This document shows, one piece after another, positions 34,800 through 59,432 of a stretch of DNA of 64,000 nucleotides (within the stretch, counting starts at the first letter, position 1; the number at the start of each line of letters is the position of its first letter). Made by a program: the position numbers and the translations under genes. The notes beneath the pieces are model-generated. The model worked only from the letters and a program-made list of their open reading frames with translations, was not told the origin of the DNA and made no database searches. The stretch lies in assembly GCA_964645205.1 (NCBI GenBank), contig CAZYBO010000005.1, positions 69,789 to 133,788 of the forward strand, written 5' to 3'. This stretch comes from an uncultured Rickettsiales bacterium (GTDB lineage: Bacteria; Pseudomonadota; Alphaproteobacteria; Rickettsiales; SXRF01).

Positions 34800-35467
34800 C
34801 TCGCCAGCTTTACCACACGCACCTCTCCCCCTTCTGCCGCAAAATTCGCATGATGCTGAAGGAAAAAGACCTGCCGTTTGAACTCGTGCAGGAAAACCCG
34901 TGGGATCGTAATCTGGAATTTTTCGCGCTCAACCCGGCTGGCGAAGTGCCGGTGCTGGTGGAAGATAACGGCACGGTAGTGTCCGGCGCCTACGCTATCG
35001 GCGAATATCTGGAAGAAACCTACCCACAGATCACCCTGCTGGGAAAAACCGCTCCCGAACGCGCCGAAGTGCGCCGCCTGATCGACTGGTTCGACCATAA
35101 GTTTGATTATGAAGTCACGCAGAACGTGCTGTTTGAAAAAGTGTTCAAGCATTATTTCCAGTGCGGCGAGCCGAATTCCGGCGCCATCCGCACGGGAAAA
35201 ACCAACATGCTCTACCATCTCGATTACATCGGCTACTTAGCAAACGAGCGCTATTTCCTCGCGGGCGACGCGCTCACGCTGGCCGATCTTGCGGCCGCCG
35301 CGCATTTATCCGCGCTCGATTATTTAGGCGATGTGCAGTGGGAATATAACCCCTGCGCGCGCAACTGGTACGCGCTGATGAAATCGCGCCCGTCGATGCG
35401 CAGCATCCTTACCGAACGCGTGCGCGGCGTGCGCCCGCCGGTTTATTATGAAAACCCGGATTTCTGA
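34796..35467 (+). CDS. Glutathione S-transferase family protein
   Basis: LYHTHLSPFCRKIR, NPAGEVPVL, LTLADLAAAAHLSALDY. Confidence 0.92.
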   Translation: MTRQLYHTHLSPFCRKIRMMLKEKDLPFELVQENPWDRNLEFFALNPAGEVPVLVEDNGTVVSGAYAIGEYLEETYPQITLLGKTAPERAEVRRLIDWFDHKFDYEVTQNVLFEKVFKHYFQCGEPNSGAIRTGKTNMLYHLDYIGYLANERYFLAGDALTLADLAAAAHLSALDYLGDVQWEYNPCARNWYALMKSRPSMRSILTERVRGVRPPVYYENPDF

Positions 35468-36545
35468 GGGAATCACCTCACAGGCTCGCGCGCTCGGCTT
35501 CGACACCGTAGGCTTCGCACGCCCCCAGCTCGCCGCGCGCTATGCCGCCGGGCTTGGGGAGTTTCTCGCACTCGGGCATCACGGCGACATGCAGTGGATG
35601 GAAGAAAAAGCCGACCGCCGCAGCGATCCGCTGACGCTATGGCCGGAGGCGAAAAGCGTCATCGTGCTCGGTCACAATTACGCACCCGAAACGAATCCGA
35701 TGGAAAAACTCGCGCAGAAAAACATCGGCAATATTTCCTGCTACGCGCTGAACGAAGATTATCATGAGGTGATCAAGAAAAAACTGAAAGCGCTCGCGCG
35801 TTGGTTGGTGGCAACGTACGGCGGCGACGTCAAAGTATTCGTAGACACCGCGCCCGTAATGGAAAAGCCGTTGGCGGAAGCTGCGGGATTGGGTTGGGTG
35901 GGAAAGCACACTTGCTTAGTCAGCCGCGAATTCGGTTCGTGGCTGTTTATCGGCAGCGTGTTTACGACGCTGGATTACAATGTCATCCTGAGCGAAGCGA
36001 AGGATCTTGCCGGAGCAAAGAAAGATTCTTCACCTGCGGTTCAGAATGACATTGCGCACTGCGGCACCTGTACCAAATGTATCGACATTTGCCCCACACA
36101 GGCCTTCACCGCCGAACGCAAGCTGGATGCGCGGCGCTGCATTTCCTATCTTACCATCGAACATAAAGGGCAGATTCCGCTGGAATTCCGCAAAGCCATC
36201 GGCAACCGCATCTACGGGTGCGACGATTGCCTCGCCGTCTGCCCGTGGAATAAATTCGCGCAAGTTGCAAACGAGTCCGCTTATCATCCACGCAAAGAAC
36301 TGGAGGCGCCGTTGCTACGCGAACTCGTGCTGCTCGACGATACCGCCTTCCGCGACTATTTTCGTAAATCCCCAGTTAAACGCATCGGACGCGACCGCTT
36401 CGTACGCAATGTGCTTATCGCCATCGGCAACAGCGGTGATCGTTCGCTAGCCGGAATTATTTCCCCGCTGCAAAATGACGCGTCATCGCTCGTCGCGGAC
36501 ATGGCGACATGGGCAGTTGAAGAATTACAACGAACCGTGCTATAA
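35448..36545 (+). CDS. queG: Epoxyqueuosine reductase
   Basis: YHEVIKKKL, VDTAPVMEK, CGTCTKCIDICPT, RCISYLTIE, YGCDDCLAVCPWN. Confidence 0.96.
   Translation: MKTRISEGITSQARALGFDTVGFARPQLAARYAAGLGEFLALGHHGDMQWMEEKADRRSDPLTLWPEAKSVIVLGHNYAPETNPMEKLAQKNIGNISCYALNEDYHEVIKKKLKALARWLVATYGGDVKVFVDTAPVMEKPLAEAAGLGWVGKHTCLVSREFGSWLFIGSVFTTLDYNVILSEAKDLAGAKKDSSPAVQNDIAHCGTCTKCIDICPTQAFTAERKLDARRCISYLTIEHKGQIPLEFRKAIGNRIYGCDDCLAVCPWNKFAQVANESAYHPRKELEAPLLRELVLLDDTAFRDYFRKSPVKRIGRDRFVRNVLIAIGNSGDRSLAGIISPLQNDASSLVADMATWAVEELQRTVL
35981..36051. repeat. Gene-less YGTC hairpin dimer (type B), in frame inside queG
   Basis: TGTCATCCTGAGCGAAGCGAAGGATCT...AGATTCTTCACCTGCGGTTCAGAATGACA. The left arm is 1 nt from the arms flanking the GIY-YIG gene at 58313. 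Confidence 0.92.
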
Positions 36546-41008: not shown

Positions 41009-42262
41009 TTAGAGTAACAGCAAGCTCGGTTTTTCGACAAATCCCTTGAAGGCCTGCAGGAACTCCGCGCCTACCGCACCATCGACCACGCGGTGATCGA
41101 CAGATAGCGTAACATCCATCACGTTGCGCACTACCATCTGACCGCCACGCACGACGACACGTTCTTCGCCCGCGCCCACCGCCAGTATGCAGCCCTGCGG
41201 CGGGTTGACGATGGCGGCGAAATTCTTCACGCCGTACATGCCGAGGTTGGAGATCGAGAAGCCGCCGCCCTGAAATTCTTCCGGCGCAAGTTTGTTGGTG
41301 CGCGCGCGTGCGGCTAGGTCTTTCATCTCGGACGAAATCGCCACCACGTTTTTTTGGTCGGCGTTTTTGACGATGGGTGTGATCAGCCCGCCGTCGATAG
41401 CCACCGCCACGGAAATATCGACATTGTTATATTGCAGAATCGCCTCATCCGACCACGACGCATTCGCCGCCGGGATTTTCTTCAGCGCAAGCGCAACGGC
41501 CTTGATGATGAAATCGTTCACCGACAATTTGTAGGCAGGTTTTTTATCCTTGCCCGCGGTGGTTTCGGCATCGAAATTGATGTCCTTGCGCACGTCGAGC
41601 AGCTTGTCCAGTTCGCACTCCACCGTGAGGTAGAAATGCGGCACCTGCTGTTTCGATTCCGTCAGGCGGCGCGCAATCACCTTACGCATCGACGTATTGG
41701 GGAGCTTCGTGAATTCCACGCTATTGCGCATCACGCGGCCTTTACCTGCGCCGCCGGAAGCCAGCGCCTTCAGCACGTCCTCTTTCACCACGCGCCCGTG
41801 CGGGCCGGTGCCTTGGATGAAGCCAATATCGATACCTTCATTGCCTGCGATGCGCTTGGCAAGCGGCGATGCGAATACGCGGCCACCGGCGCTGCTTGCT
41901 GCAGACGGCGCGGAAGCTACAGGCGCAGCAGAAGCAGCAGCGGCAGGAGCTTCCGGTTTTGCAGCGGCGGCGGGTGCTGCCGCTTTCGGCTTATAGCTTT
42001 CCAGCACTTTCTTATCCTCGCCGTCTTCCAGCAACAACGCGATGAGCTGATTGACCTTCACCCCTTCCGTGCCCGCGCCGATGGCGATTTTGCCGATGAC
42101 GCCTTCGTCCACGGCTTCCACTTCCATCGTCGCCTTGTCGGTTTCGATTTCGGCGATCACCTGGCCGGATTTGATTTTATCGCCTTCCTTCACCAGCCAT
42201 TTGGCGAGGTTGCCCTCGGTCATGGTGGGGGAAAGCGCGGGCATGAGAATTTCTATGGGCAT
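41009..42262 (-). CDS. pdhC: Pyruvate dehydrogenase E2
   Basis: Lipoyl domain [32 protein letters not shown]. Confidence 0.97.
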
Positions 42263-42279: not shown

Positions 42280-42355
42280 TGTCATCCTGAACGAAGTGAA
42301 GGATCTTTCTTCCTGCGTACGGCGTTTAGACCCTTCGCGTGCGCTCAGGATGACA
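42280..42355. repeat. Gene-less YGTC hairpin dimer (type B), intergenic upstream of pdhC
   Basis: TGTCATCCTGAACGAAGTGAAGGATCT...AGACCCTTCGCGTGCGCTCAGGATGACA. Confidence 0.9.
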
Positions 42356-44637: not shown

Positions 44638-44656
44638 GTTATCATCCCCTCGATAT

Positions 44657-45027
44657 TGTCATTCCTGCGAAAGCAGGAATCTTAATCTTGCCCTAAACCC
44701 AATCCTGTATTTCGTCGTACAAATCTTTCCATTCCGGATTCAGCTTTTCAATCAACTCTACTTTCCACTCCCGCTTCCAGCGCTTCAGGCATTTTTCGCG
44801 CTGAATAGCGCGGTCTACATAGTCGAAAACTTCAACATACACTAATTTTTTAATATGGTATTTCTTGCTATGCCCCTCTATCAATCCGTCCTTATGTTCC
44901 CTGACTCTTCTTACCAGATCCTTCGTCACTCCAATGTACAGTACGCCATATCTTTTGCTTGCCAGCACATACACATAGTATCTATGCGTTTTGCTCATTC
45001 AAGATCCCTGCTTTCGCAGGGATGACA
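44657..45027. mobile_element. GIY-YIG cassette A bracketed by inverted TGTC hairpins
   Basis: Arms at 44657-44682 (TGTCATTCCTGCGAAAGCAGGAATCT) and 45002-45027 (AGATCCCTGCTTTCGCAGGGATGACA). Mobility is inferred. Confidence 0.8.
44693..44998 (-). CDS. Short GIY-YIG nuclease (COG2827/YhbQ-like)
   Basis: YYVY..LYIGVT.DLVRR..EHK..AIQREK..KRW..LNPEW.DLY. Confidence 0.92.
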   Translation of the reverse strand: MSKTHRYYVYVLASKRYGVLYIGVTKDLVRRVREHKDGLIEGHSKKYHIKKLVYVEVFDYVDRAIQREKCLKRWKREWKVELIEKLNPEWKDLYDEIQDWV

Positions 45028-45047
45028 ACACAAAACCGTATCCATAC

Positions 45048-49165: not shown

Positions 49166-49996
49166 TTACAATGCCTTCGTAATCTTATCGTGCTCTTTCA
49201 GCAGCACGAGCAGGCGCTCCATATCGTCGAGCCGCATCATGCAGGGCCCGTCGGACGGTGCGTTGTCGGGGTCTTGGTGCGTTTCCATGAATAATCCCGC
49301 CACGCCGACTGCCACCGCAGCTTTGGCGAGGATGGGCACATATTGCCGCTGGCCGCCAGATGCACCGCCCTGCCCGCCGGGTTGCTGCACGCTGTGCGTG
49401 GCGTCGAACACCACCGGGCAGCCGGTTTGCGCCATGATCGGCAATGCACGCATATCGGTAACCAGCGTGTTGTAACCGAAGCTGGCGCCGCGCTCGGTGA
49501 GGATGACATTCGGGTTGCCCGCGTAATCCATTTTATCCACCGCGTTTTTCATATCCCACGGCGCAAGGAACTGGCCTTTTTTGATGTTGATAACCTTGTC
49601 GGTGCGCGCAGCCGCCAGCAGCATATCCGTCTGGCGCGAAAGAAAGGCGGGAATCTGCAAAATGTCCACATGCGGCGCAACCACTTCGCACTGCTCCTCG
49701 GTGTGCACATCGGTAAGCACCGGACAGCCCAGCTCCTCGCGAATTTCGTCGAAAATCGGCAGCGCCTTCACCAGCCCCACGCCGCGCTTACCCGCGATGC
49801 TCGTGCGGTTCGCCTTATCGTACGACGATTTGTAGATGAACGGGATGTCGAGCGTGTTGGTGAGCTTGATCAGCGCCTCAGCCATGAACAGCGTGTGGTC
49901 GCGGTTTTCCACCTGACATGGCCCCGCGATAAGCACAAACGGCATGTCGTTGCCGATGGTGATGTTGCCGATGGTGATGTGGCGAATAGCGGTCAT
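49166..49996 (-). CDS. kdsA: KDO-8-phosphate synthase
   Basis: [46 protein letters not shown]. Confidence 0.97.
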
Positions 49997-50002
49997 ATCA
50001 GT

Positions 50003-50377
50003 CGTCATCCTGCGGGTTGCGAAGCAACAGCGCAGGATCTCTCCCCGGTGAGCCCGGAATAGAGATCAGCCCACGCAGGATTTTTTGTTTCGATAATAGA
50101 TAGTTTCTTTTCACGATGAATATTCTTCAACTTTTTCTCCGCTTCAATAGCAGCCACAATCGTTTCGTGACATTCGAACCAAACCAGCCGCGTGAGATTA
50201 TACCGTTTCGTGAAACCGGCAACCATCTTTTCTTTATGTTGCCATACACGTTTTACCAGATCGGATGTCACGCCAATGTAAATCGTCCCACGATAGCCAT
50301 TAGACATCATGTAAACATACCCGCCAACCATCGCTTCGGATCCTGTGCTCTTGCCTGCGGCAAGCCACAGGATGACG
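50003..50377. mobile_element. GIY-YIG cassette C bracketed by inverted CGTC hairpins
   Basis: Arms at 50003-50040 (CGTCATCCTGCGGGTTGCGAAGCAACAGCGCAGGATCT) and 50338-50377 (reverse complement CGTCATCCTGTGGCTTGCCGCAGGCAAGAGCACAGGATCC). Confidence 0.8.
50005..50331 (-). CDS. Short GIY-YIG nuclease (COG2827/YhbQ-like)
   Basis: GYVY..IYIGVT.DLVKRV.QHK..AIEAEK..KNPAW.DLY. The stop codon lies inside the hairpin arm. Confidence 0.92.
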
Positions 50378-50381
50378 ATTT

Positions 50382-52425
<2,044 letters not shown>

Positions 52426-57259: not shown

Positions 57260-58288
57260 ATGACCACCCCCATGCACGATATTCTCACCCTGCTCGCCGA
57301 ACGCAAGAACCTGACGCAGGACGCGGCCGTGCGCGCGTTCCAGATCATCATGAACGGCGGCGCGACGCCAGCGCAGATGGCGGCATTTATGATGGGCTTG
57401 CGCATGAAGGGCGAAACGGCGGAGGAAATTACCGGCGGGGCGATCGCCCTGCGTGCGAAAGCGCCGCATGTGAAGGTGCCTGCAGGTGCGATCGACACAT
57501 GCGGCACGGGCGGCGACGCCAAGGGCACGTACAATATTTCCACCGCCGTGGCGTTCGTGCTGGCGGCCTGCGGCGTACCGGTGGCCAAGCACGGCAACCG
57601 CTCGGTATCCTCGCAATCCGGCTCCGCCGACGTGTTGGCGATGCTCGGCGTGAATATCAATGCGGAAATCCCGGTGCTGCTGCGCTGCCTCGAGCAGTGC
57701 AATATCTGCTTCCTGATGGCGCCGCGCTTCCACACCGCCATGCGCCATGTCGCCCCGCTACGGCAGGAGCTTGGGCTGCGCACCGTATTCAACTTGCTTG
57801 GCCCCCTCTCCAACCCTGCCACGCCCGACTTTCAGTTACTCGGTGTTTATTCGGAAAACTGGCTGGAGCCGATGGCACATGCGCTGAAGTCGCTCGGCGT
57901 CAAAGCCGCTTGGGTCGTGCATGGCAGCGACGGGCTGGACGAACTTACGCTGTCGGGCACCTCGCAAGTCGCCGAACTGAAAGACGGCAACGTGCGCCGT
58001 TTCGACATCACCCCTGAAGATGCCGGCCTCGCGCGCGCGTCCATCGACGAGCTCAGGGGACAATCCCCCGAATACAACGCCAACGCCCTGCAACACGCGC
58101 TCTCCGGCGCCGACAGCGCCTACCGCCGCGCCGTACTGCTCAACGCGAGCGCCGGTTTGATCGTCGCGGGCAAAGCCGCCGACCTCAAAGCAGGCGTAGC
58201 ACTCGCCGCCGCCGCCATCGATTCGGGTGATGCGTATAAGGTTCTCAAAAAGCTGGTCGATGTGAGCAATACTAAAGTGTCATCCTGA
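57260..58288 (+). CDS. trpD: Anthranilate phosphoribosyltransferase
   Basis: DTCGTGGD, NISTA, KHGNRSVSSQSGSAD, HGSDGLDE. The stop codon lies inside a hairpin arm. Confidence 0.97.
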   Translation: MTTPMHDILTLLAERKNLTQDAAVRAFQIIMNGGATPAQMAAFMMGLRMKGETAEEITGGAIALRAKAPHVKVPAGAIDTCGTGGDAKGTYNISTAVAFVLAACGVPVAKHGNRSVSSQSGSADVLAMLGVNINAEIPVLLRCLEQCNICFLMAPRFHTAMRHVAPLRQELGLRTVFNLLGPLSNPATPDFQLLGVYSENWLEPMAHALKSLGVKAAWVVHGSDGLDELTLSGTSQVAELKDGNVRRFDITPEDAGLARASIDELRGQSPEYNANALQHALSGADSAYRRAVLLNASAGLIVAGKAADLKAGVALAAAAIDSGDAYKVLKKLVDVSNTKVSS

Positions 58289-58631
58289 GCGTAGCGAAGG
58301 ATCTGGCCGTTTATGCTAATCTACTACGTTTATATACTCACGAGCCCCAATAACAGGGTTATGTATATTGGCGTTACGAACAACCTTGAACGCCGTGTAT
58401 GGGAGCATAAATCTAAAGCCGTATCTGGATTTACCCAAAAATATAATGTGACAAAATTGGTATATTTTGAAGAATGCTCCGATATTATGTCGGCGATTGC
58501 TCGCGAAAAACAGATTAAAGGCTGGCTACGAAAAAAGAAAGATGCGCTGGTAGAAGTCACCAACCCGGAATGGAAAGATATAAGCGTGGAATGGTACGCA
58601 AGTGAGATCCTTCGCTGCGCTCAGGATGACA
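58278..58631. mobile_element. GIY-YIG cassette B bracketed by inverted TGTC hairpins
   Basis: Arms at 58278-58304 (TGTCATCCTGAGCGTAGCGAAGGATCT) and 58605-58631 (AGATCCTTCGCTGCGCTCAGGATGACA), 26/27 inverted match. Confidence 0.82.
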
Positions 58632-58636
58632 AGTAA
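58313..58636 (+). CDS. Short GIY-YIG nuclease (COG2827/YhbQ-like)
   Basis: YYVY..MYIGVTNNLERR.WEHK..AIAREK.IKGW..TNPEWKD. The C-terminal EILRCAQDDK is encoded by the right arm. Confidence 0.92.
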   Translation: MLIYYVYILTSPNNRVMYIGVTNNLERRVWEHKSKAVSGFTQKYNVTKLVYFEECSDIMSAIAREKQIKGWLRKKKDALVEVTNPEWKDISVEWYASEILRCAQDDK

Positions 58637-58637
58637 C

Positions 58638-59432
58638 ATGACAGACACCCTCGCCGCCATCTGTGCCGCCAAGCGTGAGCACATCGCCAAGCGCAAGGCC
58701 GCCGCACCGGAAGGCCGCATACTGGAGGAGGCGCAGCGCGCCTTGCCCGCACGCGGATTCAGACGGGCGTTGCAGGAAAAGCAAAACAACAAAAAATTCG
58801 GTCTCATCGCGGAAATCAAAAAGGCCTCACCGAGCAAGGGCATCATCCGCGCGGATTTCGACCCCGCGGCACTGGCGAAGGCATATGAAGAAGGCGGCGC
58901 GGCGTGCCTTTCCGTGCTCACCGACGAGCCGTATTTTCAGGGTAGCGATGCGTATCTCGCGCAGGCGCGAAACGCCGTGGGCCTGCCGGTGCTGCGCAAG
59001 GATTTTATGCTCGATCCGTACCAGATCATTGAATCGCGCGCGCTTGGAGCGGATTGTATCCTGCTCATCATGGCCGCCCTGTCCGACGCGCAGGCGAAAG
59101 AACTGGACGAAGCCGCCACAAAACTTGGTATGGACACGCTGGTCGAAGTACACGACGAATATGAGATGGAACGCGCGGTTATGCACCTGCGCCCTGCCCT
59201 GCTTGGCATCAATAACCGCAACCTGAAAACGCTGAAGGTAGACATCGAAACCTCGCGGCGGTTGGCAGCACGGCTCCCAAAGGACGTAACCGGCGTGTGC
59301 GAAAGCGGTATTGAAACGCACCGCGATCTGCTGTATCTCCGGGAAAGCGGTTTTACCTGTTTCCTCGTCGGCGAATCGCTGATGCGGCAGGCGGATGTGA
59401 CGAAAGCGACTCGAACCCTGTTGGGAGGATAG
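58638..59432 (+). CDS. trpC: Indole-3-glycerol-phosphate synthase
   Basis: IAEIKKASPSKG, SVLTD, LRKDF, GINNRNL, ESGI. Confidence 0.97.
   Translation: MTDTLAAICAAKREHIAKRKAAAPEGRILEEAQRALPARGFRRALQEKQNNKKFGLIAEIKKASPSKGIIRADFDPAALAKAYEEGGAACLSVLTDEPYFQGSDAYLAQARNAVGLPVLRKDFMLDPYQIIESRALGADCILLIMAALSDAQAKELDEAATKLGMDTLVEVHDEYEMERAVMHLRPALLGINNRNLKTLKVDIETSRRLAARLPKDVTGVCESGIETHRDLLYLRESGFTCFLVGESLMRQADVTKATRTLLGG

Follow-up and report, generated by a model that had tools for sequence, protein, structure and literature searches.

An in-frame hairpin dimer in queG of an uncultured Rickettsiales bacterium, related to repeats that flank GIY-YIG nuclease genes

The epoxyqueuosine reductase QueG joins a cobalamin-binding domain to a ferredoxin domain through a linker of 11 residues. 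In an uncultured Rickettsiales bacterium (contig CAZYBO010000005.1 of assembly GCA_964645205.1), the intact queG gene carries in this linker an imperfect palindrome of 69 nt, which is read in frame and whose closest copy now lies in ileS. We analysed a 64,000-nt stretch of this contig, called the window, whose positions serve as coordinates, and searched the 2.17-Mb assembly genome-wide. We consider it probable that the insert is a selfish, gene-less hairpin dimer that is tolerated in a permissive QueG loop. It would be the non-autonomous form of TGTC/CGTC-tagged palindromic repeats of the 'Ssn-related motif' (SRM) type, whose full-length form would be a cassette of ~350 bp with one small GIY-YIG (Ssn-like) nuclease gene between inverted arms. 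By analogy with published Ssn biochemistry, the nuclease of one such cassette, cassette B, may have mobilised the dimer in trans through single-stranded DNA (ssDNA). The copy would then have entered the linker in its sole stop-free frame and orientation, and would persist since the linker tolerates it, not for any need of QueG. The link between such nucleases and hairpins is already published, for Ssn/SRM and for CGTC repeats, and is not new. What is new here is the near-identical ileS copy, the further coding copies, and a queG linker that has been invaded by at least six palindrome types.

The queG insert and its repeat family

The gene, the insert and the adjoining Fe-S motif are laid out as follows.

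35448..36545, plus strand: queG (epoxyqueuosine reductase), 365 aa, intact; open reading frame (ORF) with Pfam QueG_DUF1730 (PF08331) and Fer4_16 (double 4Fe-4S domain)
35982..36050, plus strand: in-frame hairpin dimer VILSEAKDLAGAKKDSSPAVQND, 69 nt, 23 codons; imperfect palindrome of two hairpin arms (35981-36051 with the flanking T and A)
35982..36006, plus strand: left arm GTCATCCTGAGCGAAGCGAAGGATC, with tag GTC, hairpin AT-CCT-GA-GC, loop GAA, GC-GA-AGG-AT and tail C; exact family consensus
36007..36023, plus strand: spacer TTGCCGGAGCAAAGAAA, 17 nt, of the family-typical form ...GCAAAGAAA, like the spacers in many genomic dimers
36024..36050, minus strand: right arm, GTCATTCTGAACCGCAGGTGAAGAATC in the minus-strand reading; a variant with mini-stem ACC-GCA-GGT, shared in this genome only by the ileS copy
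36060..36095, plus strand: first Fe-S motif CGTCTKCIDICP (C205-P216), from alignment to Bacillus subtilis QueG (5D08), with ligands and domain limits from PMC5175355

The queG product matched B. subtilis QueG (5D08) at E 1e-44 and retained all residues invariant across 21 aligned QueG of the family, including the cluster cysteines C205, C208, C211, C215, C231, C258, C261 and C265. The queA and tgt genes are likewise intact and lie adjacent to each other elsewhere in the genome (G000 C9:15457-18333; G000 is the genome that holds the studied queG, and other G-numbers denote the relatives' genomes compared). The first-pass annotation had described a 75-nt hairpin dimer inserted in frame just ahead of the Fe-S motif, with the peptide NVILSEAKDLAGAKKDSSPAVQNDI between FTTLDY and AHCGTCTKC. 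Its sequence and frame were as claimed, and the unit is here refined to 69 nt (GTCAT...ATGAC), or 71 nt with a near-invariant flanking T and A, the outer AAT and ATT of the longer reading being absent from the ileS copy. The dimer ends 9 nt ahead of the first Fe-S cysteine codon, and C205 aligns with B. subtilis QueG Cys188, a ligand of the distal [4Fe-4S] cluster.

Alignment of QueG orthologues showed that the closest of them lack the insert and have the canonical 11-residue linker, as compared to 29 residues here. A nuclease-associated repeat has added new residues to a conserved enzyme, as the annotation held, with a net gain of 18 rather than 25. The element encodes 23 aa, more than this gain, so that some of the original linker must have been lost. 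Only one of the six frames of the dimer is stop-free and it is the frame that queG uses, which fits what a selection filter on random insertions would leave. Folded as ssDNA, the insert region gave -19.8 kcal/mol (z = -2.4).

The cobalamin domain of B. subtilis QueG extends to Ser189, and Cys188 is one of the ligands of its distal cluster (PMC5175355). By these limits, the insert lies where the two domains meet, next to the distal cluster and remote from the HEAT domain that binds tRNA. AlphaFold2, run on the 21-sequence alignment, gave a predicted local distance difference test score (pLDDT) below 50 for residues 185-214, which is consistent with disorder, in a model where other Fe-S segments were poorly modelled too. 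The insert forms a hydrophilic and probably disordered loop, which we take to be neutral for QueG activity.

The left arm differs by 1 nt from both arms of cassette B (58279-58303, plus strand; 58606-58630, minus strand), as previously noted, and shuffled sequence gave no matches. Within the window, the arm recurred at 42281, 58279 and 58606 with 1-2 mismatches, and in no shuffle. Genome-wide, 40 copies were found at no more than 4 mismatches against 0 expected, so that the repetition is beyond chance. Exact arm-pattern matches numbered 43, versus 0 for a reversed-pattern control. An nhmmer profile search of the assembly gave 83 hits (28 convergent pairs and 15 solos); one of the pairs is the GIY-YIG cassette, and the remaining 27 lack a gene, form dimers of 53-81 nt and have a recognisable common spacer, ...GCAAAGAAA. 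With regard to the criteria for miniature inverted-repeat transposable elements, terminal inverted repeats are present and a gene-bearing cassette with the same ends exists, but the 28 copies have no consistent direct repeats at their flanks. The exact 25-nt arm is not lineage-specific: at least 120 contigs contain it, and they span many phyla, with Acidobacteriota, Chloroflexota, Bacteroidota, Bacillota and Patescibacteria among them. Two other origins were rejected: a chance palindrome, with 0 copies expected, and a known RNA family, Rfam giving no match for the queG insert or for the larger D-type inserts of relatives.

The closest copy of the queG dimer is an in-frame insertion in ileS, which carries VILSEAKDLALAKKDSSPAVQND and was checked against orthologues or solved structures. 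The two dimers are identical at 66 of 71 positions, and the identity ends exactly at T-GTCAT...ATGAC-A. All five differences fall within the first 8 nt of the spacer (36007-36014), and both arms are 100% identical, which implies recent copying. Among the relatives, only G012 shares this ileS insert at the same site. Judged from these comparisons, the queG copy is young.

GIY-YIG cassettes and the copying of the dimers

The window holds three GIY-YIG cassettes and a further gene-less dimer.

58279..58630, plus strand: GIY-YIG cassette B, between trpD and trpC; inverted type-B arms at 58279-58303 and 58606-58630, 107-aa ORF at 58313-58636
44656..45028, minus strand: GIY-YIG cassette A; 101-aa ORF at 44693-44998, flanking arms TTGTCAT(C/T)CCTGCGAAAGCAGG(G/A)ATCTT
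50003..50377, minus strand: GIY-YIG cassette C; 108-aa ORF at 50005-50331, longer flanking hairpin arms starting CGTCATCCTG
42281..42354, no strand assigned: gene-less type-B dimer, 74 nt, 19 nt upstream of the start codon of a 417-aa minus-strand ORF (41009-42262)

Each cassette has its own arm type, on one plan (GTCAT, hairpin, ATC). At 107 aa, the cassette-B protein falls within the size range of the Ssn proteins (~94-110 aa); it matched Pfam GIY-YIG at E 4e-19 over residues 4-75, with no second domain, and its best solved relative is the UPF0213 protein 1ZG2. NCBIfam gave no informative or specific family for the nucleases, and in the protein collection both QueG and the nuclease stand as singletons. 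B-like arms with the same GA...GA stem lie on either side of the closest nuclease-B homologues (53-62% identity), which come from G014, G018, G012, G003, G019, G024 and G008. Other hairpin types flank the more distant GIY-YIG paralogues; one in G021, which shares 52% identity with nuclease B, has the exact consensus of the Neisseria repeat NTS as its arms. Among 41 genomes, a B-clade nuclease and at least 19 arms co-occurred (7/2/2/30; Fisher p = 5e-5, with no correction for phylogeny).

The 94-aa nuclease SsnA consists of a single GIY-YIG domain; it binds NTS (CGTCATTCCCGCGMAVGCGGGAATCYRG), a hairpin repeat of Neisseria, and cuts the adjoining ssDNA, and its homologues in various phyla have related hairpins, the SRM, to either side (Chenal et al., Nat Commun 2025, PMC11893778). 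The present system is similar in its single-domain GIY-YIG protein of ~100 aa, in inverted flanking hairpins that start with (C/T)GTCAT and end with ATC, in tens to hundreds of gene-less copies per genome, and in the presence of several nuclease/hairpin pairs in one genome. In contrast to NTS, which is rare within genes in Neisseria (2%; PMC11893778), the present repeat lies in frame in housekeeping genes; in its type-B arm, a 2-bp mini-stem bears a loop of 3 nt and the stem contains two G·A mismatches, and its nuclease is known by sequence. By eye, the architecture of the A, B and C arms (tag GTCAT, hairpin, ATC tail) is the same as that of the SRM. The published SRM pattern, HGTCWYN(0-2)YYVSBRHN(0-5)WNVSBRGN(0-2)RNCYNB, matched elsewhere in the genome 51 times versus 12 in a shuffle.

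The first-pass annotation had suggested that the GIY-YIG system may be the source of coding palindromes of this kind. Arms that flank the gene, the covariation of nuclease clade with arm type and the co-occurrence across genomes are associative evidence for this suggestion, and we infer copying by the nuclease by analogy with the Ssn enzymes, for which ssDNA cleavage has been published and strand transfer has not been shown (PMC11893778).

Several observations weigh against a nuclease-mobilised dimer in a neutral loop. The SRM pattern misses the B, A and C arms, while the NTS control matches. We know of no GIY-YIG nuclease that joins DNA, which leaves the copying step without demonstrated chemistry. 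No target-site duplication or other transposition footprint was found, there being no consistent direct repeats at 28 copies. G031, from a different family of the same order as G000, holds 44 type-B arms and no nuclease-B homologue at E <= 1e-5, and G001 holds a B-clade nuclease without arms. On the protein side, canonical linker spacing was kept in 77 of 78 QueG from outside the family, so that the linker is not obviously free to vary in length and its neutrality is an assumption. Finally, the AlphaFold2 model was of moderate confidence overall (mean pLDDT 72), with low confidence in other Fe-S regions as well.

Some of these points would be expected if the host itself copied the dimers, for example through template switching or through break repair at hairpins, or if another enzyme did so, with the nuclease as a fellow traveller that recognises the same hairpin. 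The arms of G031, the missing target-site duplications and the restriction of the Ssn report to cleavage all favour such copying, as does the queG linker itself, whose old sequence was partly replaced and not simply interrupted, as break repair predicts. However, arms stand on both sides of the gene, nuclease clade and arm type covary across genomes, and 7 of the 9 arm-rich genomes have a B-clade nuclease. We therefore regard host-process copying as possible but doubtful. The G031 arms often have the GCCGCAGGC mini-stem, and they may be orphan repeats or use a different mobilising enzyme.

Other observations concern the cassettes and their surroundings. The trpD stop codon lies within the left arm of cassette B (window 58279-58640), the GIY-YIG ORF of that cassette runs through its right arm (...ILRCAQDDK*), and candidate trpC starts lie inside or right after the right arm. 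The neighbours of cassette C (window 49166-50382) are ORFs of 561 aa and 280 aa, which we take to be pyrG and kdsA. One arm tag of cassette C starts 5 nt past the pyrG stop codon, and the listed kdsA ATG (50008) is the ATGAC of the other arm, so that the element may supply the start codon. The dimer at 42281-42354 could influence translation or mRNA stability of the ORF at 41009-42262, presumably a 2-oxo-acid dehydrogenase E2, and another type-B dimer lies directly upstream of queA (G000 C9:15457-18333). G000 also contains ~82 GTCAT-tagged perfect-stem hairpins of non-type-B kinds (TCCTGC, CCCGGC and NTS-like TCCCGC), versus 5 in a shuffle.

Coding copies and the queG linker in related genomes

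A genome-wide count placed in-frame dimers in queG, ileS, alaS and ribD. The alaS copy carries HPERSEGSKKDSSASPQND, mostly within an alignment gap of ~15 residues relative to solved AlaRS, and the ribD copy carries VILNEVKDLATSHGARKILHFVQDD, a clean 25-aa insertion as compared to most family orthologues. An ungapped PDB alignment had hinted that the ribD dimer replaced a native helix-strand unit; most family orthologues lack the segment, which indicates a plain insertion in a variable region. Candidate solo arms stand in frame in two ORFs that we read as glyS and polA. The dimers in ileS, queG and ribD (69, 69 and 75 nt) are multiples of 3 in length, whereas the fourth, in alaS, has a degenerate left tag and 59 nt between tags and is the exception. 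The lengths of gene-less dimers fall into all three classes modulo 3 (8, 5 and 10).

The arms were compared in 31 distinct 25-nt variants from G000 and its relatives, hand-picked for sequence distinctness, with pairing not a criterion. Stem positions were paired in 98.6% of alignment cells, and 4 of the 7 pairs had changes on both sides (for example, GCGNAGC to ACGNAGT), including G-C to A-U double changes; no shuffle or slid register of this alignment gave comparable pairing. Longer arm variants keep a perfect mini-stem (GGCGAAGCC, GCCGCAGGC, ACCGCAGGT). These patterns of substitution indicate constraint on the arm as a hairpin. Of 28 copies, 24 are preceded by T and all 28 are followed by A, in AT-rich flanks. 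By hand count, one G-C and one A-T arm per dimer were combined in ~15 of 27 dimers versus ~12 expected, which does not point to a preferred pairing.

Arm conservation was also apparent inside a gene. Between the ileS genes of G000 and G012, 64.5% of 4-fold sites differ, whereas the 43 outer arm bases of both in-frame dimers are identical; the dimers differ in the mini-hairpins only, each of which is a perfect stem. Three processes could each account for this identity: selection that maintains the hairpin, gene conversion by another copy, and renewed insertion at that site. The identity might also be explained if intragenic hairpins acted on the DNA level as in Neisseria, where SsnA cuts incoming ssDNA at NTS sites and so modulates recombination around the marked gene. 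The published part of NTS and SsnA in transformation, together with arms kept far better in coding copies than neutral sites, speaks for such a role. However, NTS is rare within Neisseria genes, evidence of competence is lacking for this organism, and re-insertion or gene conversion accounts for the arm conservation equally well, which makes a DNA-level role unlikely in our judgement.

In this family, IleRS has a second much-used insertion site, after ...GKFTDEIFD (G000 C1:261097-261864 and loci L028-L050), with hairpin-derived peptides in G000, G012 and G006, BoxC-like repeats in G031, and domain-sized inserts in G008, G013 and G032. RibD has a different hairpin-derived insert (TTCHPALVAGSGAKP...) in G012 (L323) and two BoxC-like inserts in G031 (L324). 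Thus, IleRS and RibD of the family show repeat-derived, even domain-sized, inserts at a few sites, and the sequences indicate that the clade bears a heavy load of coding palindromes.

The queG linker was surveyed in 41 species of the G000 family with a readable linker. The canonical linker, an ELPxDxxExDH-like stretch of 11 residues, is equal in length to that of B. subtilis QueG and was present in 24 species; the other 17 had expanded linkers with at least six palindrome types.

Type B: G000, G014
CCCGA/GGG variant: G008, G018, G048
NTS-like hairpins: G019, G049
Other CCCCGC hairpins: G046, G050
Long-hairpin type resembling the cassette-C arms: G053
BoxC-like repeats: G059, G055 (assembly breaks)
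~140-nt palindrome: G003, G015, G045
Two unclear cases: G011, G058

The carriers are spread over the QueG and IleRS trees beside sisters with canonical linkers (G014/G002, G008/G005 and G015/G001), with up to three or four linker states within single genera. The residues that flank the insert track the species, not the insert. A single ancient insertion inherited by all carriers was rejected on the grounds of this scatter, the canonical sisters, and the homology of the canonical linkers to each other and to that of B. subtilis. All genomes with B- or C-type linker inserts hold 23-49 such arms, and no genome with zero arm-pattern matches has such an insert. The ~140-nt inserts (46-49 aa; L003 in G015, L008 in G003, L214 in G045) share a conserved core, CAGAACCG.AG.GT...GAGGATTCGAG; their outer stems differ between genera by compensatory changes, and Rfam gave no match. 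Repeats at this site seem to fragment short-read assemblies: the break in the G055 assembly (C244/C214) falls inside the queG linker and both contigs end in BoxC-like sequence, and in G022 (C34/C78) a contig starts at the linker position.

Expansion at exactly this site in 17 of 41 species, versus 1 of 78 outside the family (p = 1e-8), while no other internal QueG site has insertions of more than 2 residues, might suggest that a longer linker is adaptive in the family, for example through a different electron donor at the distal Fe-S cluster, with palindromes as raw material. Yet 24 of the 41 species, among them sisters of expanded ones, keep 11 residues; the inserts, 15 to 49 aa long, are unrelated in sequence; IleRS and RibD have been colonised by repeats likewise; and the queG insert is low in predicted order. 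An adaptive linker thus appears quite improbable. It is very improbable that the insert came from another genus as part of a queG allele, by inheritance or transfer: G014 does have a B-type dimer with the same arm-variant pair (CCT/AGG on the left, TTCT/AGAA on the right with a CCGCAGG-type mini-stem), but G000 and G014 are distant in the QueG and IleRS trees, each with a canonical-linker sister, their left boundaries lie 9 nt apart, the G000 arms are 100% identical to those of ileS in the same genome, and the flanking residues, which track the species, speak against transfer of a queG tract from G014.

The selfish dimer in a permissive loop would account for the insert in G000. A bolder proposal is that in this family the repeats do not simply insert at random with chance survival, but that a few short coding sites, of which the queG linker is the clearest, are recurrent targets where unrelated palindromes insert or replace one another, and that in-frame copies stay alive as DNA hairpins. 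If true, recurrent coding targets, together with arms that stay constant while host 4-fold sites are near saturation, would point to structure- or site-directed integration of Ssn-type repeats and continuing DNA-level selection in genes. We hold this proposal to be speculative and rather unlikely to be right. The queG linker may be no more than unusually permissive, or it may be targeted as well.

Relation to known palindromic elements

REPIN/RAYT systems consist of REP doublets with a domesticated IS200/IS605 tyrosine transposase. As in these systems, inverted hairpin doublets would replicate as a unit, a single-copy gene lies between the same hairpins, and hairpins would be recognised in ssDNA; in the present case, a GIY-YIG nuclease takes the place of the Y1 transposase, and the tag is TGTC/CGTC, not GTAG. 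Rickettsia palindromic elements (RPE) of the RPE-1 type were reportedly described by Ogata and colleagues in 2000 and are reviewed in PMC10969869. They too are palindromic selfish DNA found in frame in unrelated housekeeping genes of a small-genome alphaproteobacterial host, with a peptide compatible with function. RPE-1 is longer (~100-150 bp), and the likeness drawn here is one of description. RPE insertions common to several species are usually attributed to descent, whereas here one linker has been hit repeatedly by different families.

CGTC-tagged palindromic repeats occur mostly as inverted dimers, most often in Alphaproteobacteria, and both Neisseria dRS3 and Rickettsia RPE-4 and RPE-6 belong to them; the dimers found within genes contribute 20-30 aa to known proteins, and as of 2013 the repeats had been linked to no enzyme (Di Nocera et al., BMC Genomics 2013, PMC3733652). 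The RPE precedent cited in the first-pass annotation is sound, if not new, and the link of the present repeat to RPE rests on this equation of RPE-4 and RPE-6 with CGTC repeats. Both kinds of repeat have an unpaired tag, a stem-loop and a short tail, form mostly inverted dimers with conserved spacers, occur in Alphaproteobacteria and include coding dimers. The present tag, however, is mostly TGTC, and the stem has an internal block of G·A pairs: the superfamily is defined by a CGTC tag, a stem of 8-9 bp, a loop of 4-5 nt and a 3-bp tail, whereas the type-B stem has 9 positions, 2 of them G·A, and a loop of 3 nt.

The queG insert provides a natural example of nuclease-associated hairpin repeats that add peptide segments to conserved enzymes, and it connects two literatures that have not been explicitly joined, on Rickettsia-like protein-coding palindromes and on Ssn single-strand nucleases. 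What gives the case wider interest is the queG linker with its repeated invasions. This recurrently invaded stretch of 11 codons is a tractable site at which target choice may be distinguished from a selection filter, and at which it may be asked whether Ssn nucleases drive copying.

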